The notes: generated by a model not told the origin, from the sequence alone. Counted from the stretch's first letter, positions 10,428 to 52,386 are shown. The stretch is DNA of 64,000 nucleotides from an uncultured Verrucomicrobiota bacterium (GCA_964446585.1 CAYUPI010000004.1:124177-188176); one strand, 5' to 3'. Numbers and translations are program-made.

Positions 10428-10430
10428 AAA

Positions 10431-10588
10431 AAACTTTCAAATTCCAACATCCACCAACTAGATAAGCCTCAAGTCGCAAGGCACACAAAACCTCCAAAAT
10501 CCAACAACCAACTTCCAGAAAAAGCTCAAATCACAAGATCCAAAACAGATGGTTCTCGTTTGGCTGTTGGAAGTTGGAGGTTGGAGCT
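10431..10588. repeat. Heptamer array plus inverted arm downstream of four-helix-bundle gene 1
   Basis: CCAA-type units from 10431 to about 10545 (ttcaaat-tccaaca...ctccaaa-atccaac-aaccaac-ttccaga), then TTGG-type units at about 10559-10588 (tttggct-gttggaa-gttggag-gttggag). Confidence 0.75.
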
Positions 10589-11086
10589 TCATTTTTGTTT
10601 GGGTCGTTTGCGGAATATGCTGGCGAAAATCATGAGCAACTCGTGGCCTTCGCGATACAGCTTACAGGCTTCTTCGACCAAAGGGGCCTCGGAGGCGGCA
10701 ATCGTCCGCAGAAAATATTTCGTCTCCTTGGCCTCTTTAACGCAGCGACTGATCGAGAAAAAGAAATTCCCTTTCGAAAAGCTTTCGTTTGCTTCGAGAT
10801 AGTTGGCGCCGACGCTCGTGCCGCATCCAACGTTCTGATCTATCAGCCTGTTGTTCGTCGAGTCGTGAAGAATCCTCTTCGAGAAGCGCACAATCGCCTC
10901 GCCGAAATCTGGAGTCCGTTCTTCCAAATCGAACTCATGCCGCGGTTGGCCGGTTCCGTTAGGCCCCTCGTTCAACAACCAGCCCAATGCAAGCGGCTCC
11001 GGATAAGGGACTTGCTCACCAGCCTTTTTTGAAGCTTGAAGCTTGGTTTTTGTCTGGCTGTTGGCTGTTGGGTGTTGAAGTTTCAT
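10589..11086 (-). CDS. Four-helix-bundle protein (TIGR02436 / 23S rRNA IVS protein-like)
   Basis: DLEERT..FGEAIVRF, LIDQ..GCGTSVGANYLEA and KEAKETKYFL motifs. The ATG overlaps the preT stop (ATGA, 11083-11086). Confidence 0.85.
   Translation of the reverse strand: MKLQHPTANSQTKTKLQASKKAGEQVPYPEPLALGWLLNEGPNGTGQPRHEFDLEERTPDFGEAIVRFSKRILHDSTNNRLIDQNVGCGTSVGANYLEANESFSKGNFFFSISRCVKEAKETKYFLRTIAASEAPLVEEACKLYREGHELLMIFASIFRKRPKQK
11030..11082. repeat. Heptamer array at the 5' end of four-helix-bundle gene 1
   Basis: Minus strand acttcaa-cacccaa-cagccaa-cagccag-acaaaaa-ccaagct-tcaagct-tcaaaaa. Confidence 0.75.
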
Positions 11087-12543
11087 TTCACTTGCCGCGC
11101 GTATTGTTCCTCCAACTCCCCCACCCTTATCGGCCCATCGAACCCGGACCCAATTGGTGGCCCGCCTTTCACACCGTATCGCGACGGCTGGATCGGGCCG
11201 GAAATTTTTTGCCCGACGAAAAAAGCGTGAATGCCGCGCGCGGCTTTTTTGCCCTCGGCGACGGCATTGACGACTTCGCGGCCGCCATTGGCGCAGTCGC
11301 CGCCCGTGAAGACATGGGGAAGGGAAGTCTGCCCCGAGTCAGCTCGGTGAACCACCACTCCCTGTTTGTCCAGCTCCAGGTCAGAAAAGAGCTTCTTCAA
11401 CAGGCCAACCTGCTTCTGCTCGCCGATGGCTTTAATGACCATGTCGAACGGCTCGACCCAGTCGGTGCCCGGCAGAACCTGCAGCTTTCCGTTTGTGCTG
11501 GCCGTTCGAGCGAGCTTGAGCCCGGTCACGTGGCCGGTGTCGTTCGAGAGAATTTCCACTGGAACTGCATGGAAGATGAATTCGCAACCATCCGCCTTGG
11601 CCATCTCTTGCTCGAATTCGTAAGCCGGCATTTCTTCCCGGGTCCGCCGATAGATGAGCACCGCCTTCTCCGCCCCCAGCCGCTTGGCCTGGGTAACGGC
11701 GTCAATCGCCGTGTTGCCGCCGCCGATTACCGCGACTCTGTTGCCAACTGGCACCTGGTGCAGCGGCTGCGCGTGAATCTGTTCGATGAAATAAAGGGCC
11801 TCGACTACCTCGGGCAAATCTTCGCCCGCGATATTCATCCGCGCGCCGCCGCCGAGTCCGAAGCCGATAAAGATCGCATCAAACTTCTTCTCGAGTTCCG
11901 CGATGGTTATGTCGCGGCCCACCTCGACGCCACAGCGAATTTCCACGCCCAAATCCTGGACCATCCGGACTTCAAGGAGGCTCGTCTCCGGCTTCATTTT
12001 GTAGTAAGCAATGCCGTAGGTGTTCAGCCCGCCAGCCTGAGGTTTCTTTTCGAAGACCACGGCCTGATGGCCGAGCTGCGCCAGCTCGGCGGCGCAGCCC
12101 AGGCCCGCCGGACCGCCACCCAGGATCGCCACGCGCTTGCCGGACTTCCGTGCGGGCGGGTTGAACAGCTGCACTCCGTTATCATAAACGTGGTCCGTCG
12201 CGTGCCTCTGCAGCCTGCCGATTTTGACCGGGTCGCCCTCGCGATCCAGCATCACGCAAGCCCCCTCGCATAGCACCTCCGTCGGGCATACGCGCGCGCA
12301 ACTGGCACCAAGAATGTTTGCGCTGAGAATCGTGCGCGCCGCTCCGGTCAAATTCCCCGTCGTGATTTTCTTAATGAAAGAAGGGATGTCGATGCCGGTC
12401 GGACAAGCATGAATGCAGGGAGCATCGAAGCAAAACAGGCAGCGGTTGGCTTCGATGATGGCTTCATGGGGAGCATAGCGCGGAGCAATCTCGGCCATGT
12501 TGGCCGCGGCAGCTTCCGCGCCTAACTGGGGATTGATCGGCAT
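11083..12543 (-). CDS. preT: Dihydropyrimidine dehydrogenase subunit PreT (GltD-like FAD/Fe-S oxidoreductase)
   Basis: RCLFCFDAPCIHACPTGIDIP, CARVCPTEVLCEGAC, GGGPAGL, VIGGGNTAIDA; upstream of preA in the same orientation; ATG at 12543 chosen. Confidence 0.9.
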   Translation of the reverse strand: MPINPQLGAEAAAANMAEIAPRYAPHEAIIEANRCLFCFDAPCIHACPTGIDIPSFIKKITTGNLTGAARTILSANILGASCARVCPTEVLCEGACVMLDREGDPVKIGRLQRHATDHVYDNGVQLFNPPARKSGKRVAILGGGPAGLGCAAELAQLGHQAVVFEKKPQAGGLNTYGIAYYKMKPETSLLEVRMVQDLGVEIRCGVEVGRDITIAELEKKFDAIFIGFGLGGGARMNIAGEDLPEVVEALYFIEQIHAQPLHQVPVGNRVAVIGGGNTAIDAVTQAKRLGAEKAVLIYRRTREEMPAYEFEQEMAKADGCEFIFHAVPVEILSNDTGHVTGLKLARTASTNGKLQVLPGTDWVEPFDMVIKAIGEQKQVGLLKKLFSDLELDKQGVVVHRADSGQTSLPHVFTGGDCANGGREVVNAVAEGKKAARGIHAFFVGQKISGPIQPSRYGVKGGPPIGSGFDGPIRVGELEEQYARQVK

Positions 12544-12632
12544 AAAATGGCTGACAAGCAGATCAGAATAGGGGAATTCTAAGTGAAATAAAAGAAGCAA
12601 TAATAGGATTTTAGGACAACTCAGGACCAGGA

Positions 12633-13877
12633 ATGACGACACCCCTAAATCCGAAACGGACAGTCGCTGAACTCAAGGAACTGCGCAGCCTCACTTCCGA
12701 TGAGAACGGAGCGCAGCGGGTCGCCTTTACGCCGACGTGGGTCAAAGCGCGCGATTGGCTGAGAGAGAAACTCAGGTCACTGCCCGTTGAGAGCCACATC
12801 GATGCCGCGGGCAACTCCTGGACGACGCTCGCCGGTGAATCCGAGCGGGCGCTACTGATCGGCGGGCATATCGATTCGGTGCCGAACGGCGGCTGGCTCG
12901 ATGGCTGCCTCAATCTACTCGCCGGGCTGGAGATCCTGAGGCGAGTCAACGCGGAGTACGGAGGGAAGCCGCCGGTCACCGTCCGGCTGGTCGATTGGGC
13001 GGACGAGGAAGGCGCGCGGTTCGGCAAGAGTTTATTTGGCTCCTCGGCCTGTTCCGGAAACCTGAACATGGACGAGGCCCGTGTTCTAACGGACAAGCAA
13101 GGCATCCGCTTGCCGGACGCGCTCAAGAGTGTCGGCGTGGACTTCGAGCGAGTGAAGGAGAGCGGCCGGGAGCTCAAGAATGCGGGTGCCTATATCGAGT
13201 TGCACATCGAGCAAGGGCCGGTGCTGCTGGATTTGGAGCTGCCGCTGGGCGCGGTGCTGGGCACGTTCGGCGTCGAGCGGCACGCCATCACCTTTCATGG
13301 CCAGGCGGCGCATTCAGGCAGCACGCCGATGAACCGTCGCAAGGACGCCTTCCTGGCCGCGGCGAAGATAAGCCAGGAGATTTACCGCATTGCCGAACGG
13401 AGCAAGGGAGGAGTTTGCACTATCGGCTCCTGCACGACCAAACCCGGCATTGTGACGAGCGTCGTCGAAGAGTGCCGCATCACGCTCGATCAGCGTCACC
13501 TGGACGCGGCGGCCCTGGCGCGGATGCTGCAGGAGGCCAAGGCTGCAAGCGAACGCTTCGCGAAGGAAGGCAACGTCGGAGTGTCGTGGGAGCGGTTGTG
13601 GCAAATCGAGCCGGTGTTGTTTAATCCGGATTTGATAGCTTTCTGTTCGGAGGCGATAACTGAAACGTGCGGCAAAACTCACCGGCTCCCTTCGGGCCCG
13701 CTGCATGATGCCGCCGAGGTGGCGCGCGCCGGCATCCCGACGGTGATGACGTTCGTCCAAAGTCTCCACGGGATCAGTCACAACAAGATTGAAGATACCA
13801 AAGAAGAGCACCTCGAGCTCTGCGTGGCCGCATTCGATAAACTAGCGGACAAGGCGATGAAGTGGGTGGAAGGTTGA
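12633..13877 (+). CDS. M20 Zn amidohydrolase, probable beta-ureidopropionase / N-carbamoyl-amino acid hydrolase
   Basis: GGHIDSVPNGGWLDG, DEEGARFG, ELHIEQGP, HSGSTPM, SGPLHDA; divergent from preTA. Confidence 0.85.
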   Translation: MTTPLNPKRTVAELKELRSLTSDENGAQRVAFTPTWVKARDWLREKLRSLPVESHIDAAGNSWTTLAGESERALLIGGHIDSVPNGGWLDGCLNLLAGLEILRRVNAEYGGKPPVTVRLVDWADEEGARFGKSLFGSSACSGNLNMDEARVLTDKQGIRLPDALKSVGVDFERVKESGRELKNAGAYIELHIEQGPVLLDLELPLGAVLGTFGVERHAITFHGQAAHSGSTPMNRRKDAFLAAAKISQEIYRIAERSKGGVCTIGSCTTKPGIVTSVVEECRITLDQRHLDAAALARMLQEAKAASERFAKEGNVGVSWERLWQIEPVLFNPDLIAFCSEAITETCGKTHRLPSGPLHDAAEVARAGIPTVMTFVQSLHGISHNKIEDTKEEHLELCVAAFDKLADKAMKWVEG

Positions 13878-14001
13878 AGCGTTAGAACGCTGAAACGTTG
13901 AATCGTCAAGCGTGGAATGGTGGAATGGTGGAAGAGTGGGAGCGTGGAAGCGTCAAAGCGTTGAAGAGTTAAAGAGCTGAAGCGTAGAAACGTGGAATCT
14001 A
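13875..14001 (+). repeat. Degenerate 8-nt tandem array, about 16 units
   Basis: TGAAGCGT TAGAACGC TGAAACGT TGAATCGT CAAGCGT GGAATGGT GGAATGGT GGAAGAGT GGGAGCGT GGAAGCGT CAAAGCGT TGAAGAGT TAAAGAGC TGAAGCGT AGAAACGT GGAATCTA. Confidence 0.9.
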
Positions 14002-14005
14002 AGTC

Positions 14006-14530
14006 GTGGAATTGAAGCGCGTCCATTCCCTCGATGAACTGAATTCCCTATCGCAAGAGGAGTTTGTGCGCGGCGTTGGTCCTGTCTTTGAGAGTTCGCC
14101 GTGGGTTGCGGAGGGAACCTGGCCGAGGAGACCGTTCAAAGATTTGGCCGAGCTGCATCTCGCGCTTTGCGAGACGGTCCGCGGCGCGGCTGAAGAAAAG
14201 CAGCTCGCTCTGATTCGTGCGCATCCGGATTTGGTCGGCCGCGCGGCCCTGGCTGGCACGCTGAGGCCCGAATCCACTCGTGAACAGGCCAGCGCCGGGT
14301 TGAACCGGCTCCAGCCTGGCGAAATCGCCGCGTTCCAGGAATTAAACCAGGCGTATCGAGCAAAGTTCAGGTTTCCGTTCGTGATCTGCGCCCGGCTCAA
14401 CAGGAAGGAAGCGATATTGAATGGCCTTCGAGCGCGCTTGCAGCATTCAAGCGTAGAGGAGATCAAGACGGCGCTTGCTGAGATTGAAAAAATCGCTTAT
14501 CTGCGGCTGCAAGACATCGTCCGAACCTGA
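14006..14530 (+). CDS. uraD: OHCU decarboxylase
   Basis: [51 protein letters not shown]. Confidence 0.92.
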
Positions 14531-14535
14531 CGGCT

Positions 14536-14892
14536 ATGCCCGCCAAACTGAGCACACACGTCCTGGATACGGCACATGGTTGCCCGGCGGCTGGCATGCA
14601 GATCGAGTTGTGGTCGCTCGCTGGCGGGACGCCGAGGCTGTTGAAAACAGCGCGCACGAACAGTAATGGCCGGACCGATCAAGCGCTGTTGGCCGCCGAT
14701 GAAATCAAAGCCGGGTCGTACGAACTCATATTCTTCGTGGGCGACTACTTTGCAAGCAAGAGTGCTTCAGTGCCGAGCACGCGTTTCCTGGATCGGGTCC
14801 CCGTCCGCTTCGGTATCGCCGATCCAACTGCTTCCTATCATGTGCCGCTGCTGGTGTCGCCCTGGGCCTACAGCACGTATCGCGGGAGTTGA
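14536..14892 (+). CDS. uraH: 5-hydroxyisourate hydrolase
   Basis: [38 protein letters not shown] (transthyretin-like signature). Confidence 0.95.
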
Positions 14893-14908
14893 GCACATTC
14901 GTCCACGG

Positions 14909-16390
14909 ATGAGCGCCGCAAAGCCAGCCTCGGAATGGGGAAAGATGGCCACTCGGGTTATGCGGCGCCTTGAAGAGCTTGGCCAAATCAGCGACGAACC
15001 GGGCCGGCTGACGCGCACCTTTTGCTCGCCTGCGATGCGCCGCGCGAATGACCATGTCGGTTCCTGGATGCGCCAAGCAGGCATGACGATCCGTCAGGAT
15101 GCCATCGGCAATCTGGTCGGCCATTACCCCGGTCAAAGTGCGAAGTGCGAAGTGCGAAGTGCGAAATGCGAAGTCCATCCTCCTCCGTCAGAAGCACTGC
15201 GGAGGACAATAAGTCCATCCTTCTCTGTCAAGAGCGCTGCGGGGGACAAGAAGTCCAAAGTTCTGCTGCTTGGCTCGCATCTCGATACGGTCCGGGATGC
15301 GGGCAAATTCGACGGCGCTCTGGGCGTGCTGGTAGCCATTGCCTGTGTCCAGAAGCTCCACGAGCGTGGCAGCCGGCTGCCATTTGACATTGACGTCCTC
15401 GGTTTTGGAGATGAGGAAGGCATCCGGTATTCCACAGCCTGCCTGGGTAGCAGGGTCCTCGCGGGAACTTTCGACCGACGCGATTTGAAACGCCGAGACG
15501 CCAACGGCGTCACCATGAGGGAGGCCATCCGCGAATTCGGCGGACGCCCGCAAGCATTGAGCGGCGCGCGGTTCGATCCCGAACGGTTGCTCGGGTACGC
15601 CGAGATCCACATCGAACAGGGACCTGTGCTGGAGCAGCAGAATCTCGCGGTCGGCGTCGTGTCCGCCATAGGCGGTCAAACCCGCGCTCGGATTTCGTTC
15701 ACTGGGCAGGCCGGACATGCCGGGACCACTCCGATGAACCTGCGCCGGGATGCGTTGTGCGGTGCCGCCGAGTTTATTTCGGTAGTCGAGGCGCTCGCTC
15801 GGAAACAGCGCGGGCTGGTGGCTACTGTCGGCGAGCTCAAAGTGCTCCGCGGCGCTTCCAATGTGATTCCCGGCCAGGTCCAGCTCAGCCTGGACGTGCG
15901 GCATGCGGAAGACGCCAGGCGGCGGGCCGCGTGCGCCGAATTGAAAAAGCGTGGCCGGGCCATCGCTTCTGAAAGAAAATTGCGATTTGAATGGAAACCG
16001 GTCAGTGAGTCACCTGCCATTCGGTGTGATCGATGGCTCTCTCAACTAATGAAGGAAGCCGTGCAGCGGCAGCAGGGCTCGGCCGTGAGTTTGCCCAGCG
16101 GGGCAGGGCATGACGCGGCGGCCATTGCGGCTATCGCCCCCGTAACTATGCTCTTCGTCCGGTGCAAGAACGGTCTCAGCCATCATCCGGCGGAATACGC
16201 CTCGAAAAGGGACGTGGGCATCGCTATGGCCGTCCTGGTTGATTTTTTGCGGGGGCTGGCAAAGAGATTTGGAACGTCCTGCGAGTCACCGACAGTGCGT
16301 AGCCGTGGACGTCAGTCGGCGCTGAAAAGCACGCGGGAAGAAGGTCCGCCGACTCACGTCGGCGGCTACAATTCAGCCCGCGATTTGTGA
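14909..16390 (+). CDS. allC: Allantoate amidohydrolase with repeat-derived internal insertion and C-terminal extension
   Basis: DAIGNLVG, GSHLDTVRDAGKFDG, DEEGIRY, EIHIEQGP, HAGTTPM, SGAGHDA, SHHPAE; lies between uraH and allB. Confidence 0.88.
   Translation: MSAAKPASEWGKMATRVMRRLEELGQISDEPGRLTRTFCSPAMRRANDHVGSWMRQAGMTIRQDAIGNLVGHYPGQSAKCEVRSAKCEVHPPPSEALRRTISPSFSVKSAAGDKKSKVLLLGSHLDTVRDAGKFDGALGVLVAIACVQKLHERGSRLPFDIDVLGFGDEEGIRYSTACLGSRVLAGTFDRRDLKRRDANGVTMREAIREFGGRPQALSGARFDPERLLGYAEIHIEQGPVLEQQNLAVGVVSAIGGQTRARISFTGQAGHAGTTPMNLRRDALCGAAEFISVVEALARKQRGLVATVGELKVLRGASNVIPGQVQLSLDVRHAEDARRRAACAELKKRGRAIASERKLRFEWKPVSESPAIRCDRWLSQLMKEAVQRQQGSAVSLPSGAGHDAAAIAAIAPVTMLFVRCKNGLSHHPAEYASKRDVGIAMAVLVDFLRGLAKRFGTSCESPTVRSRGRQSALKSTREEGPPTHVGGYNSARDL
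15136..15256 (+). repeat. AAGTGCG heptamer array followed by an imperfect 40-bp tandem duplication inside allC
   Basis: AAGTGCG x4 plus AAATGCG at 15136-15170; units 15171-15210 and 15211-15250 match at 33/40 positions by manual alignment. Confidence 0.9.
16299..16369. repeat. GTAG-type REP inverted pair inside the allC 3' end
   Basis: gtagccgtggacgtcagtcggcg (16299-16321) vs reverse complement of 16347-16369, gtagccgccgacgtgagtcggcg: 20/23 identity. Confidence 0.85.
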
Positions 16391-17763: not shown

Positions 17764-17842
17764 CGGCGAGCCGTGGAGCTATTGATTTTTGCGGCGCGCG
17801 ACGTGTTGACCTTAGAATGCAGCAGATTTGAACCGCTTAGTT

Positions 17843-18586: not shown

Positions 18587-18593
18587 ATATCTG

Positions 18594-18635
18594 AAGCCCG
18601 AGGTCCGAAGTGCGAAATGCGAAGTCCGAAATCCG
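18594..18635 (+). repeat. Heptamer array, AAGTGCG family
   Basis: AAGCCCG AGGTCCG AAGTGCG AAATGCG AAGTCCG AAATCCG just after the allE stop. Confidence 0.85.
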
Positions 18636-18734
18636 GAGACGGATGCTTTAGTGACGGTCTGCCGTTCGCGCGCCCGGGCTTTTTCGATCGTTGCTTTCTC
18701 CCCGCGCACCGCTACCATCCGCGCTTCGAGTGTT

Positions 18735-19382: not shown

Positions 19383-19428
19383 TTTCTCTGGCGCGTTCGC
19401 CGCGCCGACTGACGGCCCCGTTCCTTTC

Positions 19429-20737: not shown

Positions 20738-23700
20738 ATGGACGGGGCCCTTGAGTTTATTCTGAACAGCCGTCGGGTTCGGCTCGCGGATTGTTCGCCC
20801 AATGCCACTCTGCTGGATTATCTCAGGGGCTGCGGTTTTACCGGTTCCAAAGAAGGCTGCGCCGAGGGCGATTGCGGAGCGTGTTCCGTGGCAATCGTGG
20901 ACCGGGATTCCCGGGGACGCGCCTGCTACCGCGCCATCAACAGTTGCCTGGTGCCGATTTCACTCCTGGCGGGGCGCGAGATTATCTCGGTCGAAGGAGT
21001 AGCCTTTCGCAACAAAACCCAAAACCCAAAACCCAAAATCCAATCGCGCCACGCGGTGTCTCCCACCGAGGCAATCGACGAGGTCCAGCTCCACCCGGTC
21101 CAGGAAACAATGGTTCGCTGCCACGGCTCGCAATGCGGCTATTGCACGCCCGGGTTCATCCTGTCGCTGTTCGAGGGCTATTACCGCGGCGACATTTCCA
21201 AATCGGATCAACTGGACGATCAGCTTTGCGGCAATCTTTGCCGGTGCACCGGCTACCGACCGATTCGTGAAGCGGCTCTCGAGGCCTTCCCGGCACGACA
21301 TCGCAAAAATGGCCGAGACCCATTCGCGGAGCGGCTGGAACGGCCGGTCCCGTCTCTGGATGAAGTCGAGTACGCGCTCGACGGTGAAATGTTTTTCCGG
21401 CCATCGTCGCTCCCGCAGCTCCTGCAGTTGATGGAGCGATTTCCTGACAGCAGGCTGATCGCCGGTGCGACGGAACTTGGACTGGACATTACGAAGCGAT
21501 TCAAGAAGTTCCCAACCCTCATCTCAGTTGAGGCGGTGCCCGACTTGAAAGAAATCCACTCGACGGATTCTGAATGGCGCATCGGCGCTGCTGCTACGCT
21601 CACCGAAATCGAGGAACAGATGGCGGAGGAATTTCCAGCTCTCGCCGACATGTTGCGCGTCTTTGGCTCGCGCCAAATCCGCAATCGCGCCACCATGGGC
21701 GGCAACCTTGTCACGGCTTCGCCCATCGGCGACAGCGCGCCGGTGTTGCTGGCGCTGGACGCCAAAGTCGTTCTGGTCTCTGCTCAACCTGCACTTGCGA
21801 CGCCCCCCTCGCAGCTTCCCTCGCTGATCGAGCGCATACTGCAGCTCGACGACTTTTTTGTGACTTATCGCAAAACCGCGCTGCGGCCGGGTGAAATCCT
21901 CAAAACAATTTTGGTGCCGCGTTCCGACAGCGAATCCGGCCTTCGTCGATTCTGCCGGTGGTATAAAGTTTCGAAGCGACGGGAAATGGACATCAGTACC
22001 GCGGCGGCCTGTTTTTGCGTCGATATCGACCACCAGCGCATCGTCAGGGACGCCCGACTCGCTTATGGTGGCGTGGCTCCGATGCCTGTGCGCGCCCACA
22101 AGACTGAGGCAGCTCTGCTCGGGATGCCGTGGAGCAAAGAGACACTCTCTCGAGTTGTACCCATCTTGCAGAGTGAGTTCACCCCGATTTCCGACGTGCG
22201 CGGCTCGGCCGAGTACCGACGAGGGCTGGGTGCGAGCCTTTTTGAGAAGTTCTATCAAGAGACCTCTGAGGAGCCGAACGATCGCCGGGACCAAGGTCTG
22301 CCGCTGCTCGTTAGGTCTCCGGCCGAAGGACGGAAGCGCGCGTTGCCGCATGAGAGCGCGCACAAGCATGTCACGGGCGAGGCGATTTACACCGATGACC
22401 AAGCCTGCGGCACACGCATGCTCGACGTCTGGCCTGTCTGTTCGCCGCACGCGCGCGCGCGGGTCCTCCGGCGGGATGCGACGGTCGCATGCAAGATGCC
22501 CGGCATAAAAGCGGTGCTCCTGGCTGAAGACGTACCGGGCCTGAACGATGCGGGCACAAAACTCGATGAAGCGTTGCTGGCCACTGATAATGTGTTTTAT
22601 CACGGTCAGATTGTCGCGCTGGTCGTTGGTGAATCTCAGGAAGTTTGCCGTGCCACGGCTGATAAAGTTCTTGTCGATTACGAGCCCCTTGAGCCGATTC
22701 TGACTCTGACGGAGGCGATCGCCCAAGGGAGCTTTCACAATGAACCGAATTTTATCCGCCGCGGCGACATTGAGGCGGCGCTTGCCGCTGCGCCCTTGAT
22801 TCTGCGCGGCGAATTCGAGTTAGGCGGCCAGGAACACTTTTACCTCGAAACTCATGCGGCGTGGGCCGAACCGGGCGAGGATGGCACGATGTTCGTGACC
22901 TCATCGACCCAGCATCCTTCCGAAGTCCAGACGGTGGTGGCGCACGCCCTCCGTCAGCCCGTAAACAATATCATTGTGCAATGTCCTCGTATGGGCGGTG
23001 GCTTCGGCGGCAAGGAAACCCAGGCGGCAATGCCCGCGGCCCTGGCTGCGCTAGCCGCGCATCATACTGGCCGAGCCGTGCGCGTTCGATTCAATCGCGA
23101 TCAGGACATGATCCTCACCGGCCATCGGCATCCCTTCCGGGCGGAATTCGCGGTCGGCTTCGACACCCAGGGCCGGCTGCTGGCGGCGCGAGTGCACCTG
23201 ACCTCAAACGGCGGTTGGGCATTGGATCTATCACAAGCCGTCACTGACCGCGCGCTCTTTCATCTGGATAATGCCTATTACATTCCCGCGGTCGAGTTTC
23301 GCGGCCAGGTGGCGAAGACCAATCTTTCGTCGAACACCGCTTTTCGGGGGTTCGGTGGCCCGCAGGGCATGCTCGTCATCGAGGAAATCATCGATCGCAT
23401 CGCACGTCGGCTCGGCCTTCCACCGGAAACGGTCCGCGAACGAAATCTCTATCGTGGCAAGGGCGAGACGAACACAACTCATTACGGACTGGAGATCGCG
23501 GACAACCGCATTCAAACCATCTGGCGCGAGTTGAAGATGTCCAGCGGCCTGACACGGCGCCGCGCCGAGATTGCAGCCTGGAACCGGAAGCATCCTCATC
23601 GGAAGCGCGGTCTGGCGATGACTCCCGTCAAGTTCGGTATCAGCTTCACGGTGACGCATCTCAATCAGGCAGGCGCGTTCGTTTTGATTTACCAGGATGG

Positions 23701-27301: not shown

Positions 27302-27357
27302 GGGGTCAAACGCGGCCGCACCTAGCCAAGGACTTCTGCAAAAGCGCAATGTTCTCG

Positions 27358-27478
27358 AATGACGAATGACAAATGCTAAATGACGAAAGAAATCCTAATG
27401 ACCAAATCCTGAAAACGCTCCGACTCTGTTGCTTGTATTAGTCATTCGTCATTCTTCAGTCATTTGACATTCGTCATT
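27358..27478. repeat. Gene-less inverted heptamer-array hairpin (AATGACG type)
   Basis: aatgacgaatgacaaatg (27358-27375) vs reverse complement of 27461-27478, aatgacgaatgtcaaatg: 17/18; lies between convergent thrC and TPR genes. Confidence 0.88.
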
Positions 27479-28533: not shown

Positions 28534-28770
28534 GCGCTCAGCCTAGCATTCGCGGCGGCCAAGTCCAAACAACAAACCCGGAGTCCAATGACAAAGTCAT
28601 TTCGGAACTCCTTGACACGAATTTCACGAATTTGCACGAACGCGAGGCCGGCGAAAACAGCGCCCAAGCGCGCGTTGCCGCTCGGCCCGGCGCTATTTCT
28701 ATCCCACTTTCCCGGCATTGAACGATACGGACCTCGGATTCCGAGTAGTGCTGGCCTGCCCAAGACCAAG

Positions 28771-28785
28771 GTCCAAAGTCCAAGG
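28771..28785 (+). repeat. 15-bp direct repeat, copy 1 (in heptamer array)
   Basis: gtccaaagtccaagg, identical to 29911-29925. Confidence 0.8.
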
Positions 28786-29055
28786 CTTGTGCGCTTGAGA
28801 TCGCCTTGCGACATGATAGCATGCTTTCGCGTGAGCGCGCCCAAGAAAGCACTTCTTTCTGACCCAGGACGAGCCAAGAAGCCGAGCTCTCATCCCGAGC
28901 GACCGTTTGCGGGCTCGACCCCCAGACATGGAAAAGGCGACGGAAATGTACAAGAGGGCATCGTTGGAAGTTCGGACAAAACCGCAGCATCCGGCTGGAA
29001 ATTCAAACCCGACTGCCTCGGGAATGCCGTTCGCTACACAACGACGCGTGAGACG

Positions 29056-29886: not shown

Positions 29887-29910
29887 TCGCATCGGCCTCG
29901 CTTTTTCAAA

Positions 29911-29925
29911 GTCCAAAGTCCAAGG
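29911..29925 (+). repeat. 15-bp direct repeat, copy 2 (in heptamer array)
   Basis: Within caaagtc-caaagtc-caaggtc-caaggcc-agaagtc. Confidence 0.8.
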
Positions 29926-29963
29926 TCCAAGGCCAGAAGTCCAGCGCGTGCCGGTTAAAACCT

Positions 29964-31781: not shown

Positions 31782-31785
31782 CAAA

Positions 31786-31930
31786 AATTCCAAGACCCAA
31801 ATTCCAAATCCCAAGAAAGCTCCAACTTGCAAATCCCAAGCTCCAGAAACGGACCAAGCGCCCGAGCCAGAGGCGGGAGCCGACGCAGTGTGAGTCGCCG
31901 GTTTCGGATTTTAGCTTTTGGCCTTTTCCT
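31786..31930. repeat. CCAA-type heptamer array with weak complementary arm
   Basis: aattcca-agaccca-aattcca-aatccca-agaaagc-tccaact-tgcaaat-cccaagc-tccagaa; resembles the array at 10431-10545. Confidence 0.7.
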
Positions 31931-41069: not shown

Positions 41070-41077
41070 TTGCTTTG

Positions 41078-41112
41078 GTTGTGAGTTGAGAGTTGGGAGT
41101 TGAGACTGCTGA
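41078..41112. repeat. Heptamer array between ilvN and ilvC
   Basis: GTTGTGA GTTGAGA GTTGGGA GTTGAGA CTGCTGA. Confidence 0.8.
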
Positions 41113-43649: not shown

Positions 43650-43714
43650 GATTCTGAAAATTTGGCGTTGAACTTGAACGCCGCTATGGCAAATTGAATA
43701 ACGATCTCTAAACT

Positions 43715-44053: not shown

Positions 44054-44116
44054 ATTCTGGTCCTCTCGCCCCTCAATTAGATTGATCCTTGACTGGGGCT
44101 TCGCCACGCTCCGGCC

Positions 44117-44983: not shown

Positions 44984-44998
44984 GTGACGTGGGCTTCC

Positions 44999-46600: not shown

Positions 46601-46640
46601 AGCGCGCACTAAAAGCCGGAGGAACGCCGGAGTCCCGGCT

Positions 46641-47183
46641 TCAGAAACGGAAGCTCATCTTCAGATAAAGCCATTCTGATTCCAGGACGCCCGCGCCGTT
46701 GGTTCGCGAACGTCCGAAGATGTCGTCCGGGAAGATTCGGCCGAAGCCCGTTCCCAAAGCGGCCCAGACCTGGTAAGAATTTCGGGAAGGCATTCTCTTA
46801 AAGAGTAGCATGACTGTGCTGTCGCGCTTCAATTCCATCTGCGCCGCATCTCTCCGCGAAAACCTGTCGGGCCGGAACTCGTCCGTGTAACCGAAGAGCT
46901 GCGGAACCTGGGAATCGGCGCTTTCAGGCGCGACGTTATGCAAGGCTTCGGCAGGTCGGGCGTAGTAGGTGAATCGACTCGACGAGAGGAGCTGGCCAGC
47001 ATCCAACTCATTCGGAATCTGTTCTTCGGCTGGAATACTCGAGCAACAGAGGCAGACCACAACACCGATAACAGTTAGAGGAAAGAAGCGTCGTCGAATT
47101 TGGTCCTGACGCCCCGCGCCCGCGGCTGCCGGACTTGGCAATGCCGCACGGTGCTTAGTCTTGCACTCGAACTGGAAACTCAT
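46641..47183 (-). CDS. Hypothetical protein, possibly exported
   Basis: Fills the gap between nadB and the aquaporin gene; hydrophobic stretch VIGVVVCLCC; ends YLKMSFRF. Start uncertain. Confidence 0.4.
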   Translation of the reverse strand: MSFQFECKTKHRAALPSPAAAGAGRQDQIRRRFFPLTVIGVVVCLCCSSIPAEEQIPNELDAGQLLSSSRFTYYARPAEALHNVAPESADSQVPQLFGYTDEFRPDRFSRRDAAQMELKRDSTVMLLFKRMPSRNSYQVWAALGTGFGRIFPDDIFGRSRTNGAGVLESEWLYLKMSFRF

Positions 47184-47419
47184 GCTCCACTGGCAGCACC
47201 TCGGATGCCAAGGCCTCCTGTCGTCTGGAGCTCCCAAGGGATTGTGGCAGGCGACGTAAAGCACGCTTCGACCGATTTTGGATTCTGGATTTGTAGAACT
47301 GAGCCGTCCGGCAGCGTCTGGCACGAATACTCGGGAAATTGAAATCTTGTACGCATTTGGGACAGTATTTCGGCGGCGCTTGACATCCTGCCGTTTCCCT
47401 ACACAGTGCAGCCATTGCC

Positions 47420-48046
47420 ATGAAAAAATATATCACGGAGTTCATTGGTACCTTTTTTCTCGTGCTCACCATCGGTTGTTCGGTGCTGCTAGGTGGACCA
47501 CACGTCGTGCCGCCTTTGGCTATCGGCTCCGTCCTGATGGTAATGGTTTACGCGGGTGGCCACATTTCCGGCGCTCACTACAATCCCGCTGTTACGCTCG
47601 GCGTGTTTCTGCGCGGCCGATGCCCCGTCAAGGATGTTGTTCCCTATTGGCTGGCGCAGTTGCTCGCGGCATTGCTGGCTGCCGTTGCCTTGAGTTACCT
47701 GAAGGGCGAGGCGCAGGCGAACCCGATAGCACTGAAAGTAGGTCCGGCGCTGCTCGCCGAATTTCTGTTCACCTTCGCGCTGGTTTACGTCGTGCTCAAC
47801 TGTGCCACCGCCAAGGCCAACGCGGGCAACTCCTTTTATGGGCTGGCGATCGGTTTTACCGTAATGACAGGGGCGTTCACCGTCGGCACCGTATCCGGCG
47901 CGGCCTTCAACCCGGCAGTGGCCGTGGGCATTACCCTTATGGGGTTTTCCGCCTGGTCAAACATTTGGGTGTATTTCCTGGCTAACTTAAGCGCCGGGGT
48001 CGCTGGCGCCGCGATGTTTAATCTCCTTAACCCGGAAGATGCGTAG
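47420..48046 (+). CDS. aqpZ: Aquaporin (MIP family)
   Basis: EFIGTFFL, two NPA motifs (SGAHYNPAVT, SGAAFNPAVA), AEFLFTF. Confidence 0.9.
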   Translation: MKKYITEFIGTFFLVLTIGCSVLLGGPHVVPPLAIGSVLMVMVYAGGHISGAHYNPAVTLGVFLRGRCPVKDVVPYWLAQLLAALLAAVALSYLKGEAQANPIALKVGPALLAEFLFTFALVYVVLNCATAKANAGNSFYGLAIGFTVMTGAFTVGTVSGAAFNPAVAVGITLMGFSAWSNIWVYFLANLSAGVAGAAMFNLLNPEDA

Positions 48047-48130
48047 CGTGCCTGAAGGGATTGAGGCGAGAAGACGCCGCAATGCTCGGACGAAGGCCGC
48101 TCGTTTCACGGTTGAAACGCGCGCGCCAGT

Positions 48131-48445
48131 TTAATGTGCGTCGGCCTTGCGGGGGCTGCGGAAGGTATCTTCAATATAACGAGAGAGCATCTCCTCTTGC
48201 TCAGGCGTGAGCTTGGATTTCCGGCTCATTTTGAGCATCCATTTGTGCCATTCCGCATCAGAATATTTTGCGGGGTCGTAGAACTTGTGGCACTTGGCGC
48301 ACTTGGCGATGTAAAGCCGGCGCGCGACGCTTGCTTCGTCGGTAGGAGAATCAACCGCGACTGCCGGCCCCGCGCAGCCCGCCAGGGCCATGCCGCCTAG
48401 ATTCAGGCACACGAGCAAAAGGTACGCCCAGGTGGTCGGTTTCAT
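48131..48445 (-). CDS. Small c-type cytochrome lipoprotein
   Basis: Lipobox LAGC; heme motif CAKCH; W...MLKM providing a candidate distal Met. Confidence 0.75.
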   Translation of the reverse strand: MKPTTWAYLLLVCLNLGGMALAGCAGPAVAVDSPTDEASVARRLYIAKCAKCHKFYDPAKYSDAEWHKWMLKMSRKSKLTPEQEEMLSRYIEDTFRSPRKADAH

Positions 48446-48533
48446 CTTAAGAACTTCGCGCCAATCTTTATTGAGAATCAGTCTCAGTGTCAACTCTGAA
48501 CCGCGCCCTGGCTTTGGCGCGAGCGCGAGGTTC

Positions 48534-51500
48534 TCACGCTGCCTGCATTGCTTTGAGCGATCGGGAGCGCCACAGATAGTAGATGGCCGGATAGACCAGC
48601 AGTTCCATGGTGGTCGAAGTGACGACGCCGCCGATCATGGGTGTGGCGATGCGTTTCATCACGTCCGCGCCAGTGCCGTGACTCCAGAGGATCGGCATCA
48701 GTCCGGCGATGATGACTGAGGCGGTCATGGCTTTGGGGCGGACGCGCTTGACCGCGCCGTGATAGATGGCGTCGCGCAAGTCGGTCGCATGGCGCATGAG
48801 ACCCTTCTTCTGCCAGTCGGCGTATGCGAGGTCCAGGTAGAGGAGCATGACGACGCCGGTTTCGGCATCGAGCCCGGCGAGGGCAATGATGCCAACCCAG
48901 ACCGCCACGCTCAAATTGTAGTGGAGCAGGGCGAGCACGCCGAAAGCGCCCACGAGTGAAAATGGCACGGCCAGCATCACGATGGCAGTCTTGATGGCCG
49001 AGCGCGTGTTGAGGTAAATGATTAAGATAATGATGAGCAGCGTGAGCGGAATGACGATCATGAATCGTGCCTTGGCGCGGAGCATGTATTCATATTGGCC
49101 GCTCCAGAAGATGTTATAGCCGCCGGGTAGGTGGATGCGGCCGTTCGCGACGGCTTCGTCGACGGCGCGTATGGCCATCTGGACGTAGGTGCCGATATCG
49201 ATGCCTTTGACGTCCACATAAATCCAGGCATTAGGCACCGCGGCCTCGCTCTTGATTCCCATCGGAGCATGGACGATTTCGATGCGGGCTAACTGGCCCA
49301 GCGGGACCTGAGGACCCGAGGGCGTTGGCACAATGATTTCGCGCAACGCCTCCGGACTTTCGCGAAAATCGCGGCTGTAGCGAAGGTTTACGGCATATCG
49401 TTCGAGTCCTTCGACGGTCGTTGTGAGCGCCATGCCGCCCAGCGCCACCTCGAGTACGTCCTGGACCGCTCCGATCGTTAAGCCGTATCTGGCAATGGCA
49501 TCACGGTCGATTTGGAACTCGATGTAATTGCCGCCCATTGTGCGCTCAGCAAACGCGCTCAAAGTGCCCGGCACGGTCTTAACCACAGCTTCAATCTCGG
49601 ATGCCACCCGCTCCAACTCGGCGAGGTCGGGGCCGGCGACCTTGATGCCGACTGGAGTCTTGATGCCCGTCGCCAGCATGTCGATGCGCGTCTTAATCGG
49701 CATCGTCCAGGCATTGTTCAAACCCGGAATCTGAACAGCGCGATTCATCGCTTCCGTCAACTCATCGGGCGTGCGGCGGCGATGAGCGATGATGTTCCCA
49801 GAGTCATCGAGGATTTCCACTTTCGGCCATTCCTCTTCGGGCTTGAGCATGATGGTGGTTTCAATCATGTCGAAGGGCGCGGGGTCGGTTGCCGTTTCAG
49901 CGCGGCCGATCTTGCCGAAGACTTGATGGACTTCGGGGAAGCGGCGTAAGATTTTGTCGGTGGTCTGGAGGACCTCGCGTGCTTTGGTGGGTGAGATCCC
50001 CGGAAAAGTCGTGGGCATGTAGAGCAGGTCGCCTTCATAAAGAGGCGGCATGTATTCGGAGCCGATGTTTTGGTATGGGAAATATTTCCCAATCTTGAAG
50101 GCCAATTCCTTGGTTCTGCCATCGGGCAACAGTTTGGCGGCGAGCGCATTCCAGGGCAGGAAGGTCCAGATAATGAGGGCAGCAGCGGTGGCGATGACAG
50201 GCCAGCGCCACTTGATTACAAAATCGATTGCCGGATGGTAGAGCCAAATGAGGAAACGGTTGATCGGATTTTTCTCCTCGGCGGGAATCTTCCCGCGAAT
50301 GAAAAAGCCCATGAGCACGGGTGCGAGCGTGATCGATAGCAGCGCCGCCGCAGCCATGGAATAAGTTTTGGTGAAGGCCAGAGGCTTGAAGAGGCGGCCT
50401 TCCTGCGCCTGGAGTGCAAACACGGGAATGAAGGAAACGGTGATTACCAGCAGAGAGTAAAAGAGCGTGGGCCCGACCTCGATGGAGGCATCACGGATTA
50501 TATCCCAATGGGGCTTTTTGCCCTGGTCACGCTCCATGTGCTTATGAGCGTTTTCGATCATGATGATGACCGCGTCCACCATGGCGCCGATGGCGATCGC
50601 GATGCCGCCGAGCGACATGATGTTCGAGCTGATGCCCTGCTCGAACATGACGAGAAAAGACATGAGGACGGCGACGGGCAGGATGATGATGGCGACCAAC
50701 GCGCTGCGCAGATGCAGGAGGAAAGCGATGCAAACCAGCGCCACAACAAGGCTTTCCTCGATGAGTTTCTCTTCAAGAGTCCTGACTGCGCGTTGAATGA
50801 GCGCGCTGCGGTCGTAGGCAATCGTGTATTTCACATTCGCGGGGAGGCCCTTCATAGCGGTGTCGAGCTTTCGTTTGACGTCGAGGATAACCTGCCGGGC
50901 GTTTGCGCCGTAGCGAACGACGACAATGCCGCCGACGGTTTCACCCTCGCCGTTCAGTTCGGCGATCCCGCGCCGCATATCGGGACCGAGCTCGACATTG
51001 GCGATCTGGCCGAGGAGAATCGGAACTCCCTTGTCGCCGACGCCTACGGCGATCTTGCGGAGATCGTCAAGTTTTTGAACGTAGCCACGCACGCGGAGGA
51101 TGAATTCCTTTTCGGCCAGCTCGATCGAGCGCCCGCCGACTTCGCCATTGCTGCGTTTGACGGCCATAGCGACCTCGGAAACAGAAAGGTTGTAGGCGCG
51201 GAGCCGGGCGGGATCTACGGTGACCTGATACTGTTTCACGAAGCCGCCAATGGAAGCGACTTCGGAAACGCCTTCCACAGAAGCCAACTGGTAGCGGAGA
51301 TACCAATCCTGCATGGAACGGAGTTCCGCGAGGTCGCGGTTGGTGGAGTTGATGGAATACATGAAAGCCCAGCCGACGCCAGTGGCATCCGGGCCGAGGC
51401 TGGGGGAGACGCCCGAGGGCAGGCGACCGCTCAAGCCGCTGAGATATTCGAGCACGCGGCTGCGCGCCCAGTAGGGATCGGTGCCGTCGGCGAAGATGAC

Positions 51501-51782
51501 ATAGACGAACGAAAAGCCGTAGAAAGAGTAGCCACGAACTACCTTCGCGCCCGGCACGGAAAGCATTTTGGTGGTAATGGGATAGGTGACTTGATCCTGG
51601 ACGATTTGGGGTGCCTGCCCCGGCCATTCGGTGTAAATGATGACCTGGACATCCGATTGGTCAGGGATGGCGTCCAGGGGGATGTTCTTGAGCGCGTAAA
51701 CGCCGCCCAGCACCAGAACAATCGTCCCTAGCAGGACGATAAATTTGTTCCTGAGGGAGAAATCTATAATGCGCTGGAGCAT
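48534..51782 (-). CDS. cusA: Heavy-metal RND efflux permease, CusA/SilA type
   Basis: PLDAIPDQSDVQVI, LGPDATGVGW, NIMSLGGIAIAIGAMVD, MPPLYEGDLLYMPTTFPG, WTMPIKTRIDM, KRVRPKAMT. Confidence 0.93.
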   Translation of the reverse strand: MLQRIIDFSLRNKFIVLLGTIVLVLGGVYALKNIPLDAIPDQSDVQVIIYTEWPGQAPQIVQDQVTYPITTKMLSVPGAKVVRGYSFYGFSFVYVIFADGTDPYWARSRVLEYLSGLSGRLPSGVSPSLGPDATGVGWAFMYSINSTNRDLAELRSMQDWYLRYQLASVEGVSEVASIGGFVKQYQVTVDPARLRAYNLSVSEVAMAVKRSNGEVGGRSIELAEKEFILRVRGYVQKLDDLRKIAVGVGDKGVPILLGQIANVELGPDMRRGIAELNGEGETVGGIVVVRYGANARQVILDVKRKLDTAMKGLPANVKYTIAYDRSALIQRAVRTLEEKLIEESLVVALVCIAFLLHLRSALVAIIILPVAVLMSFLVMFEQGISSNIMSLGGIAIAIGAMVDAVIIMIENAHKHMERDQGKKPHWDIIRDASIEVGPTLFYSLLVITVSFIPVFALQAQEGRLFKPLAFTKTYSMAAAALLSITLAPVLMGFFIRGKIPAEEKNPINRFLIWLYHPAIDFVIKWRWPVIATAAALIIWTFLPWNALAAKLLPDGRTKELAFKIGKYFPYQNIGSEYMPPLYEGDLLYMPTTFPGISPTKAREVLQTTDKILRRFPEVHQVFGKIGRAETATDPAPFDMIETTIMLKPEEEWPKVEILDDSGNIIAHRRRTPDELTEAMNRAVQIPGLNNAWTMPIKTRIDMLATGIKTPVGIKVAGPDLAELERVASEIEAVVKTVPGTLSAFAERTMGGNYIEFQIDRDAIARYGLTIGAVQDVLEVALGGMALTTTVEGLERYAVNLRYSRDFRESPEALREIIVPTPSGPQVPLGQLARIEIVHAPMGIKSEAAVPNAWIYVDVKGIDIGTYVQMAIRAVDEAVANGRIHLPGGYNIFWSGQYEYMLRAKARFMIVIPLTLLIIILIIYLNTRSAIKTAIVMLAVPFSLVGAFGVLALLHYNLSVAVWVGIIALAGLDAETGVVMLLYLDLAYADWQKKGLMRHATDLRDAIYHGAVKRVRPKAMTASVIIAGLMPILWSHGTGADVMKRIATPMIGGVVTSTTMELLVYPAIYYLWRSRSLKAMQAA

Positions 51783-51788
51783 TTTTCG

Positions 51789-51860
51789 TGGAGCGTCAGG
51801 AGCGTGGAGCGTGGGGAGCGTCAGGCGGGAGCGTGTCTGCTAAGCTCGCACGCTCTGACG
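51789..51860. repeat. GAGCGT-type array and inverted arm at the 3' end of four-helix-bundle gene 2
   Basis: tggagcg-tcaggagcg-tggagcg-tggggagcg-tcaggcgggagcgtg, then inverted cacgctctgacgc at 51848-51860. Confidence 0.8.
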
Positions 51861-52275
51861 CAGCTACGATATACTCTACAGGGACCTCGCGCAGCTCACA
51901 GCCCGCGCCACACCATGAAGCGGCATCGTTCATCATGTTGGACAATTGCCCACAAATGTGGTCGTATTGATCGCTCAGTTTCGTCTGTGTGTCGGCAACC
52001 AGGTATCCGCAATTAAGGGCGAAGCTCAGATGGACCTCGGTTTCGGCGGCCTCAGTGTCACTATCGCTGAGTTTACTGACAAACGCCGCTTGATACCGGC
52101 GCTTACGCCAAGCTTCTGCGATGTTCGTGCAAACGGACCTGGAGGATCTCCGTATCTGATCAATCAATGAGAACTTTTCCTCCGACGGCCAAGTGCGGCT
52201 TAGTCGGAAAATCTCCATTGCTGAGTCATAGGCGAGTCTGTAAACCCGCAGTTCCTTATAGTCTTTGGCTCTCAT
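51796..52275 (-). CDS. Four-helix-bundle protein (TIGR02436 / 23S rRNA IVS protein-like)
   Basis: DYKELRVYRLAY, EEKFSLIDQIRRSSRSVCTNIAEAWRKRRY, SKLSDSDTEAAET, ALNCGY; tail LREVPVEY. Confidence 0.92.
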   Translation of the reverse strand: MRAKDYKELRVYRLAYDSAMEIFRLSRTWPSEEKFSLIDQIRRSSRSVCTNIAEAWRKRRYQAAFVSKLSDSDTEAAETEVHLSFALNCGYLVADTQTKLSDQYDHICGQLSNMMNDAASWCGAGCELREVPVEYIVAASERASLADTLPPDAPHAPRS

Positions 52276-52337
52276 ACGCTCGGCTTAGACGTTCGTTCTC
52301 ATTTTAGTGTGTTATTTACCCATCACTTCTCGCGCGC

Positions 52338-52380
52338 CTACGCACCACGCTCCCCACGCTCGCACGCTTCGACGCTCACT
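52338..52380. repeat. ACGCTC-type array upstream of four-helix-bundle gene 2
   Basis: 52347-52361 (acgctccccacgctc) is the exact reverse complement of 51807-51821 (gagcgtggggagcgt). Confidence 0.85.
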
Positions 52381-52386
52381 CCGCCC

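Follow-up and report, generated by a model that had tools for sequence, protein, structure and literature searches.

Four-helix-bundle genes bracketed by inverted short-repeat arrays in bacterial operons: apparently undescribed relatives of rRNA intervening sequences

Introduction

The closest known system to the elements described here is the intervening sequence (IVS) of 23S rRNA that carries an open reading frame (ORF), as in Leptospira, Coxiella, Brucella, and Xanthomonas. In Coxiella, a terminal inverted repeat of 28 bp, which is cut by RNase III, closes the loop that contains the S23p ORF, and ORF-bearing IVS occur sporadically among relatives and have long been viewed as selfish or formerly mobile (PMC4990558). 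In this work, a stretch of 64,000 nt from an uncultured Verrucomicrobiota bacterium (G+C approximately 59%; in the following, the window) was analyzed, in which two genes of the same four-helix-bundle protein family (TIGR02436/PF05635) are located within operons, each bracketed by inverted arrays of short, degenerate repeats. Such repeat-bracketed operon cassettes are apparently widespread, undescribed, and related to the rRNA IVS.

As in the IVS, the ORF of the cassettes is co-oriented with the host transcript and lies in a loop predicted to be closed by inverted repeats, and its presence among relatives is sporadic. Unlike the IVS, the cassettes are situated in the spacers between protein-coding cistrons and not in an rRNA helix. 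Their arms are degenerate tandem arrays of 7-8-nt units with a length of 30-55 nt, often with an extra inner arm, the distal arm would double as the leader of the next gene, and ORF-less, arm-only alleles exist at the same site.

Tandem 7-nt units confined to intergenic DNA are also known from the cyanobacterial short tandemly repeated repetitive (STRR) sequences, from Xanthomonas (GGGAATC), Nostoc (GGGGA(C/T)T), and Beggiatoaceae (TAACTGA). These repeats are often found next to start codons, sometimes form inverted stem-loop pairs, and vary between close relatives (PMC4692102, PMC4679880). The arrays of the window share the STRR-like trait (tandem 7-nt units, over-represented, and non-coding) except for two in-frame arrays. 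However, the genomes in those reports have one or a few units, and no gene is associated with them, whereas in the present case the unit families are many, a defined subset is arranged as matched inverted pairs around one specific gene family, and period 8 is as common as 7.

The third system to be compared is Avd of the diversity-generating retroelements (DGRs), which belongs to the same fold family, makes up a positively charged, pentameric barrel of four-helix bundles, and binds structured RNA beside its own gene; DGR RNA also contains a long-range duplex. All five protomers of the Avd pentamer take part in binding an RNA stem-loop (bioRxiv 10.1101/2023.10.23.563531). In contrast to DGRs, the cassettes have no reverse transcriptase, template/variable repeat pair, or target gene (the window contains no long direct repeats of the template/variable kind), and the arrays have no counterpart in described DGRs. 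The heptamer excess in bacterial spacers and the rRNA IVS are already known; apparently new is the link of the gene family to flanking inverted arrays. The literature on heptamer repeats, IVS, and DGRs within our coverage, which excluded most subscription journals, gave no account of arrays flanking this family or of such operon cassettes. To our knowledge, the TIGR02436/PF05635 family has no known role outside DGRs and rRNA IVS.

Results and Discussion

Two cassettes between operon genes

The gene of cassette 1 (10589-11086, minus strand) matched TIGR02436 with 43.4 bits (cut-off 24) and scored 27.8 for PF05635, under the cut-off of 33.8; the gene of cassette 2 (51796-52275, minus strand) matched both profiles strongly with 90.4 and 96.8 bits, respectively. 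The conserved core of the first gene spans approximately 10592-10948, and a gene caller elsewhere gave a 132-aa product. The second encodes a core of approximately 135 aa and a C-terminal tail translated from repeat arrays. Between the two proteins, no similarity was detectable by BLASTP. By sequence similarity, the closest solved relatives of the cassette 2 protein are the homopentamers 2GSC (E=1.4e-7) and 2RLD, a resemblance which suggests pentameric assembly as a prediction.

Cassette 1 is flanked by a PreT-like gene (11083-12642) and PreA (9117-10427), cassette 2 by CusB (52387-54360) and CusA (48534-51782), all on the minus strand. The initial annotation of this DNA, made from the sequence alone, had placed both genes in operons, co-oriented and between normally adjacent partners, and this is confirmed by the profile matches and by relatives in which PreT and PreA overlap or have a distance of 7-25 nt and, in one case, CusB and CusA a distance of approximately 6 nt. 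Both cassettes sit between protein-coding genes and not in a 23S rRNA helix; Rfam gave no match in the window or in 18 short related loci, and neither cassette lies in rRNA. Around cassette 1, a scan for sigma-70 promoters and intrinsic terminators, which is of limited value for this phylum, found no such site on the cassette strand.

With A denoting an array and A' its complement, cassette 1 reads on the mRNA as A (11027-11085), ORF, inner A (10556-10591), A'1 (10489-10546), and A'2 (10428-10488), and cassette 2 as A (52337-52386), ORF, inner A (approximately 51844-51866), and A' (51787-51836), all on the minus strand. The C/A-rich upstream arm of cassette 1 begins at the PreT stop and consists of CAACAGC/CAAGCTT units with a central CCAGACAAAAACC; when translated, it is the N-terminal tail of the longest ORF. 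Immediately 3' of the ORF stop follows the inner copy with CUCCAAC units, which is predicted to form a nested local hairpin with the G/U-rich A'1, and the terminal A'2, the predicted partner of the upstream arm, ends at the PreA start codon. In cassette 2, the upstream arm with GGAGCGU-type units begins directly past the CusB stop, and the short inner copy (GUCAGAGCGUGCGAGC) lies within the 3' end of the ORF, so that the tail of the protein is translated from inner A and A'. The terminal arm with ACGCUCC units would pair with the upstream arm over a distance of 521 nt and stops 4 nt short of the CusA start.

Minimum-energy and centroid folds of both regions paired the upstream A with the terminal A', leaving the ORF in a large loop and the inner A in a local hairpin. 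The outer-arm duplexes reached −76.7 and −42.1 kcal/mol, compared to −52±4.6 and −24±3.9 kcal/mol for shuffled arms. It had been proposed that A' pairs with either A copy as a switch or processing stem. By energy, either pairing is indeed feasible, and the upstream arm of cassette 1 could pair about equally well with either complementary segment; however, the folds favor the upstream A with the terminal A' and gave no sign of a switch.

Association of the arrays with the gene family

The arrays belong to the genes and are not generic spacer filler; gene and arms form a unit. The cassette 2 protein has thousands of relatives at 65-87% identity, and relatives at 76-77% identity were found at CusB-CusA (L005, 76%; also L019 and L188) as well as at an unrelated site after guaA (L013, 77%). 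All four loci carry GGAGCGT arms upstream and ACGCTCC arms downstream, as in cassette 2. In relatives of this cassette, the protein core is nearly invariant and the C-terminal tails are array translations. For cassette 1, about 3000 relatives at 70-86% identity exist, and the three examined (72-78% identity) are all located at PreT-PreA with CCAAC-type arms, the C/A-rich arm upstream and a G/U-rich arm, which contains GGAG, ending approximately 8 nt before the PreA start.

The TIGR02436/PF05635 family comprises 5517 clusters at 50% identity (single-sequence search). A profile scan with one genome per species yielded 80 loci from about 20 phyla, 70 of them with enough flank. In 56 of these 70 loci, the complementarity of the 160 nt upstream with the 300 nt downstream exceeded the 95th percentile of same-locus controls (median 15 vs 8), and Tandem Repeats Finder (TRF) detected arrays in 84% of the upstream and 82% of the downstream flanks, with median lengths of 40 and 36 nt or approximately 5 units. 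The units vary among cassettes (GGAGCGT, GGGAGTGT, GGGGAGCA, GGAGACTA, GATGAGAT, GGAGTCA, and others), and each is matched by its complement on the opposite side. This extends even to a single 9-kb stretch (L076, 2448-11108) with four family members, each of which has its own complementary unit pair. The layout A-ORF-A-A' read in the initial annotation is correct for both cassettes, with a double A' in cassette 1, but the conserved and general layout is A-ORF-A', and the extra inner A is optional. Likewise, the layout is kept while the unit differs, as had been stated, but the polarity depends on the protein subfamily: in subfamily 2 the G-rich arm is upstream, in subfamily 1 downstream, in another phylum too. 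Array periods in the wider family are mostly 8, 16, 7, and 14 (TRF), with 8 commoner than 7, a correction to the reported unit of approximately 7 nt, which differs between the two cassettes and is far above chance in the window.

By the strict definition, arrays were present in 52% of the gaps beside these genes vs 15% of the other gaps at the same loci (odds ratio 6.4, p=1e-12), an enrichment beside TIGR02436/PF05635 genes in keeping with the earlier view of genes and arrays as a unit with ORF-less relatives dispersed around it, which is supported and proved to be general. The cassettes fill the intercistronic space, with the upstream arm beginning at or just past the preceding stop and the downstream arm stopping a few nt before the next start, and the stop of the cassette ORF often adjoins or overlaps the start of the next cistron. 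Where both neighbors point in the same direction, 31 cassettes share this direction and 4 run against it. Protein identity is higher within the same unit class, both across phyla (0.64 vs 0.575) and within a phylum (0.76 vs 0.60), with a permutation p<0.0005, which would fit the recognition of the arrays by the protein that had been suggested, but fits co-inheritance equally well.

The C-terminal tails of subfamily-2 proteins are low-complexity array translations (SERxSV and APRS repeats; A1 alignment, columns 140-210), and the protein lengths range from 133 to 252 aa. Annotated lengths in the family are unreliable because these tails vary with the arrays. A cultured carrier is Nostoc punctiforme PCC 73102 (NPUN_RS36250 on pNPUN02), with (GGGGAGCA)n upstream and the complement downstream. 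In one locus (L083, 1-905), two family members stand in tandem with an A'-A junction between them. On plasmid pOSC7112.02 of Oscillatoria nigro-viridis PCC 7112 (L187, 1240-2040), an array of approximately 200 nt, (GGGGGAGAGT)n, lies upstream and a G-rich, non-complementary array downstream of the gene.

Filled, arm-only, and empty alleles

PreT-PreA junctions were collected in a metagenome scan with the PreA N-terminus (80 loci). In distant relatives, PreT and PreA overlap (ATGGCTGA), and in relatives at 84-88% PreA identity the spacer measures 8-25 nt. At 87% and 92.5% PreA identity, a 129- or 150-nt spacer consists of two cassette-1-type arms and a short loop; L110, the closest PreA relative of the window (92.5%), is such an arm-only locus without the ORF. 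In alignments with filled cassettes, these spacers match the ends with 70-81% identity (the arms of L110 with 70-80%) and lack the inner 450-500 nt. Filled/empty polymorphism exists at both cassette sites, and filled, arm-only, and empty states are interleaved on the PreA tree. As the filled cassettes are orthologous and old, the simplest reading of the arm-only form is a deletion derivative. Recombination between the A copies had been suggested to delete the ORF and leave A-A'. The arm-only state of L110 agrees with this, but the end-points of the deletion are not placeable, as the arms of L109 and L110 align globally with ambiguous end-points.

Other PreT-PreA gaps contain hairpins of other heptamers (TTGACCY, GTTACAT), single arrays, or unrelated palindromes, and at least three hold a different four-helix-bundle gene (L130, L147, L154). 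The gene in L130 (1851-2500), from a more distant relative, has its own arms TTAGCTGA/TCAGCTAA and is an independent occupation of the site. No target-site duplication was recognizable across filled, hairpin-only, and empty PreT-PreA junctions, whose sequences are too diverged to see or exclude one. In two close relatives (L106, 225-437, and L108, 956-1214), the spacer is a palindromic element of 210-260 nt with arms of the GGGAGAGGG(C/T)C(G/A)GGGTGAGGGCGAGCG type, unrelated to the arrays.

At CusB-CusA (three relatives examined), the junction is filled in a relative with 90% CusA identity, and at 84% identity the spacer is approximately 6 nt long. In L189 (655-1937), whose CusA N-terminus is 93% identical over 92% of the query, opposite-strand genes for an HNH endonuclease and a ParE-like toxin replace the cassette. 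Two ACGCTC motifs persist there just ahead of the CusA start. The CusB-CusA cassette of L188 (1480-1900, on a long-read contig) gave profile matches in three reading frames, pointing to either assembly frameshifts or a decaying gene.

Covariation and selection

For covariation analysis, the arms of PreT-PreA loci (four filled, two arm-only) were joined as mini-constructs, and RNAalifold returned a 45-bp stem that was 90% paired. Double-sided changes occurred in 14 of the 45 pairs vs 6.7±1.7 in shuffles (0/500) and at most 5 in partner-slid controls; the sample, however, is small, and the sequences tested are those from which the structure was derived. The arms covary both within a cassette lineage and between lineages. 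With the compensatory A:A' changes, the array enrichment, and the filled/empty polymorphism, three of the four conditions that the initial annotation had named as refuting it came out in its favor. As judged by folds, duplex energies, and covariation, the cassettes have terminal inverted repeats with a predicted stem enclosing the ORF.

Orthologous cassettes differ at a proportion of synonymous sites (pS) of 0.66-0.89, which is saturated, and of nonsynonymous sites (pN) of 0.08-0.16; the ratio of the substitution rates (dN/dS) was ≤0.07 where computable. The cassette proteins are under strong purifying selection, and the low pN at synonymous saturation means that the protein is functional and old at these sites. 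By the same comparison, the unit type of the arms is kept over a span that would be expected to randomize neutral sequence.

Dispersed arrays of related units

A lag-autocorrelation scan of the window found 9 strict period-7 segments vs 0.05 in dinucleotide shuffles and none for periods 4-6 and 10-12; TRF agreed on these arrays. At a looser threshold, 16 period-7/8 segments were found, all of which lie between genes or in the 5' part of ORFs that were called too long, in a window with a non-coding share of only approximately 10%. All gene-less arrays listed in the initial annotation exist, and the two reported inside ORFs (15127-15257 and 21007-21049) are truly in frame; a 116-nt octamer array at 13878-13993 had been missed.

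Shared 7-mers were uninformative for grouping the arrays, as random segments link equally often, and the test was redone with 9-11-mers. By shared 10-mers, the arrays fall into five families with 14 links vs 1.1 expected, which argues for a dispersal of copies and not for independent slippage. One family unites the arms of cassette 1 with the arrays at 21007 and 31785, another the arms of cassette 2 with the octamer array at 13878. CRISPR-like or DGR repeats were ruled out as an identity of the arrays, as there are no spacers and no template/variable repeat pair.

Proposed mechanism and alternatives

We consider it fairly probable, if far from certain, that the cassettes are promoter-less inserts between cistrons that resemble ORF-bearing 23S rRNA IVS, with arms that pair in the transcript and ORF-less hairpins as deletion derivatives. 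Transcription of the host operon would read through the cassette, and the outer arms would pair in a stem of 30-55 bp, looping out the ORF as in the ORF-bearing IVS. This stem is probably a substrate of RNase III, whose cutting was shown for the 23S rRNA IVS and may extend to the cassettes, and/or a binding site of the encoded, predicted pentamer. Binding of the arms by the protein is plausible because all five protomers of the related Avd pentamer hold an RNA stem-loop. The distal arm, which ends at the next start codon, would provide the leader for it, including GGAG in subfamily 1; with this leader and an ORF stop beside or over the next start, expression of the downstream cistron would be preserved and the insert tolerated. 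If the ORF were lost, for which recombination or slippage of the upstream A with the inner A is the simplest route, an A-A' hairpin would be left, and hairpins of this kind and solo arrays would account for at least some of the dispersed 'empty' arrays. The cassettes may also spread between sites as units.

Several observations weigh against this reading. Clear arm complementarity is missing in 14 of the 70 loci, the Oscillatoria PCC 7112 member with G-rich arrays on both sides is an exception to A-ORF-A', and arrays, as they also occur in 15% of the unrelated gaps of the same genomes, are not found solely beside these genes. Translation of the subfamily-2 ORF runs through the inner A into A', so ribosomes would melt the stem, and the in-frame arrays inside genes require an origin at the DNA level. 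No enzyme for cassette movement was found among the 46 ORFs of the window, and as orthologous cassettes persist beyond synonymous saturation, movement is rare. Pairing of the arms at the RNA level is a prediction from the sequence. Lastly, mismatches in the arms showed no excess of G-U over A-C (136 vs 119, p=0.32), so complementarity is equally good on DNA as on RNA, and gene conversion between the arms could keep it; the test does not discriminate between selection at the RNA level and homogenization at the DNA level.

The main rival, which we rate as unlikely but deserving of attention, is a mobile element at the DNA level. The inverted arrays would then be terminal inverted repeats or hairpin recombination sites, recognized on DNA by the enzyme of another locus or, with lower likelihood, by the four-helix-bundle protein itself, with ORF-less hairpins and solo arrays as non-autonomous copies in the manner of MITEs or REP elements and any RNA stem as a by-product. 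Both explanations are compatible with each other. A DNA-level element would account for the strand symmetry of the arm mismatches, the arrays in frame inside two genes, and the five array families with their surplus of shared 10-mers. The same holds for the occurrence of one cassette type at unrelated sites and of different cassettes, array hairpins, and other palindromes at the same intergenic site by lineage. However, transposase, recombinase, and reverse transcriptase were absent among the 46 window ORFs in Pfam scans, in agreement with the initial annotation, which had noted no transposase or recombinase nearby. The lack of a recognizable target-site duplication, the persistence of cassettes at one site past synonymous saturation, and the absence of relatives from IMG/VR viral contigs in a search with the subfamily-2 profile also speak against such an element, as does the co-orientation with the host genes, although selection after insertion could give the same bias.

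Among mobile elements, miniature inverted-repeat transposable elements (MITEs), repetitive extragenic palindromes (REP) and bacterial interspersed mosaic elements (BIME) with REP-associated tyrosine transposases (RAYT), and IS200/IS605 are similar in being small, intergenic, and tolerated in operons, with inverted or hairpin ends and abundant ORF-less beside rarer ORF-bearing copies. They differ from the cassettes, whose ORF is not a recognizable transposase, whose ends are arrays varying by lineage, and for which no target-site duplication was recognizable at the diverged PreT-PreA junctions. Integron cassettes are also promoter-less, consist of a single ORF and an imperfect inverted repeat, and are co-oriented and expressed from upstream transcription. 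By contrast, no integrase was found among the scanned window ORFs, attI and attC are missing, and the cassettes described here are dispersed singly in ordinary operons with a cargo that always belongs to the same protein family.

The arrays might also be the cognate nucleic-acid ligands of the encoded, predicted pentameric rings, with approximately 5 units of 7-8 nt (median array 36-40 nt) lying on five protomers, comparable to the repeated triplets around TRAP or to the stem-loop held by the Avd pentamer, with lineage-specific co-evolution of the units and a self-recognizing, horizontally spreading module as the result. We regard this reading as speculative and rather doubtful. If it were true, ORF-less arrays of the module would be spread over operon spacers, and even coding loops, in many phyla, and 23S rRNA IVS and part of the long-unexplained heptamer excess would have a common explanation.

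Less probable still is a host regulatory module, in which the pentamer is an RNA-binding regulator or chaperone and the arrays are operators that set translation, stability, or processing of nearby cistrons and are kept for the benefit of the host. Strong purifying selection at fixed sites would suit such a role, as would the solo arrays that belong to the family of cassette 1 (21007 and 31785) or of cassette 2 (13878), the median array of approximately 5 units for a pentamer, and the binding of RNA by all five protomers of Avd. Many arrays also adjoin start codons, as do the TAACTGA repeats in Beggiatoaceae (PMC4679880). Nevertheless, the neighboring operons are functionally unrelated (metal efflux, pyrimidine catabolism, guaA, ATP synthase, and conjugation genes), close relatives do well with empty or hairpin-only sites, most arrays of the window belong to unit families without a cognate gene in the window, and binding of the arrays by the protein is a postulate.

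That slippage-made simple repeats of 7-8 nt merely fill non-coding DNA and the four-helix-bundle genes happen to have non-coding flanks is hardly credible: a heptamer repeat excess in bacterial intergenic DNA is already known (PMC4692102) and unrelated gaps of the same genomes do contain arrays, but coincidence is contradicted by the upstream/downstream complementarity in 56 of 70 loci, the recurrence of one unit type with related proteins, both at unrelated sites and in other phyla, the four different matched pairs within 9 kb, the compensatory changes, and the 6-fold enrichment, all of which it leaves unexplained.

If matched inverted arrays generally bracket the members of the family, these would be a widespread class of cassettes within operons that annotation has overlooked, and the ORF-bearing rRNA IVS would gain a broader setting. 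The unexplained excess of 7-8-nt repeats in intergenic DNA of many bacteria would be linked to a protein amenable to purification and testing, and the cassettes would represent a natural design for placing a gene between cistrons without breaking the operon. The predictions are directly testable because cultured, genetically tractable carriers such as Nostoc punctiforme PCC 73102 exist.

Further features of the window

The nearest genome match in the profile scan was a Limisphaerales (Verrucomicrobiota) metagenome-assembled genome, and identical cassette-2 contigs are present in Logan assemblies. By Pfam, the 46 window ORFs represent ordinary metabolism and transport, including a purine/pyrimidine catabolism cluster, type II secretion, and ilvNC; PADLOC defence models gave no match.

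ORF-less A-A' hairpins were found directly downstream of PreA (8976-9107, minus strand; GAAUGAC type) and between convergent genes (27352-27478, no strand assigned; GAATGAC/GTCATTC), the arms of the latter being 94% complementary. A further ORF-less element of the same family (1706-1793, plus strand) consists of a GGAAATC/TTCGGAT hairpin followed by a (GTCATTC)n array. The solo octamer array of the GGAAGCGT type (13878-13993, plus strand), which has 10-mers in common with the arms of cassette 2, lies between genes for an M20 peptidase and an OHCU decarboxylase. Between two co-oriented genes, a solo C/A-rich array (31785-31840, plus strand) resembles the upstream arm of cassette 1 (CCCAAGAAAGCTCCAAC). 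The (CAAAACC)n array at 21007-21049 (plus strand), with 10-mers common to the cassette 1 arms, adds a 12-aa stretch, NKTQNPKPKIQS, to the linker past the first 2Fe-2S domain of a xanthine-dehydrogenase-like protein.

The second in-frame array (15127-15257, plus strand) combines (AAGTGCG)n with two 40-nt units, each with an internal stem, in an M20 (allantoate amidohydrolase-like) gene; this insert of approximately 38 aa is absent from two paralogues in the same window. At the C-terminus, too, this gene is extended, and the extension overlaps a palindrome (16299-16369). A solo array of the same family as the one at 15127 is located between a cupin and a GAF gene (18591-18640, plus strand). Upstream of ilvC, a solo array with UCUCAAC units on the mRNA (41073-41112, minus strand) occupies the ilvN-ilvC spacer and ends a few nt before the ilvC start, and a solo (CGTGAAA)n/(CGTGATG)n array (59421-59476, plus strand) lies directly upstream of a PolX-like gene.

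Two partner arrays with CAAAGTC/CAAGGTC units are situated in the leader of a methyltransferase gene (28758-28786, plus strand) and between this gene and a gene for a type II secretion ATPase (29901-29941, plus strand). As direct arrays, they flank the methyltransferase gene, giving the order A-gene-A around another cargo. The non-array palindromes at 61886-61976 and 5450-5565 represent another type of hairpin element between genes; one of these, right after an isochorismatase gene, has 29-nt arms with 97% complementarity, the other 36-nt arms with 83%.

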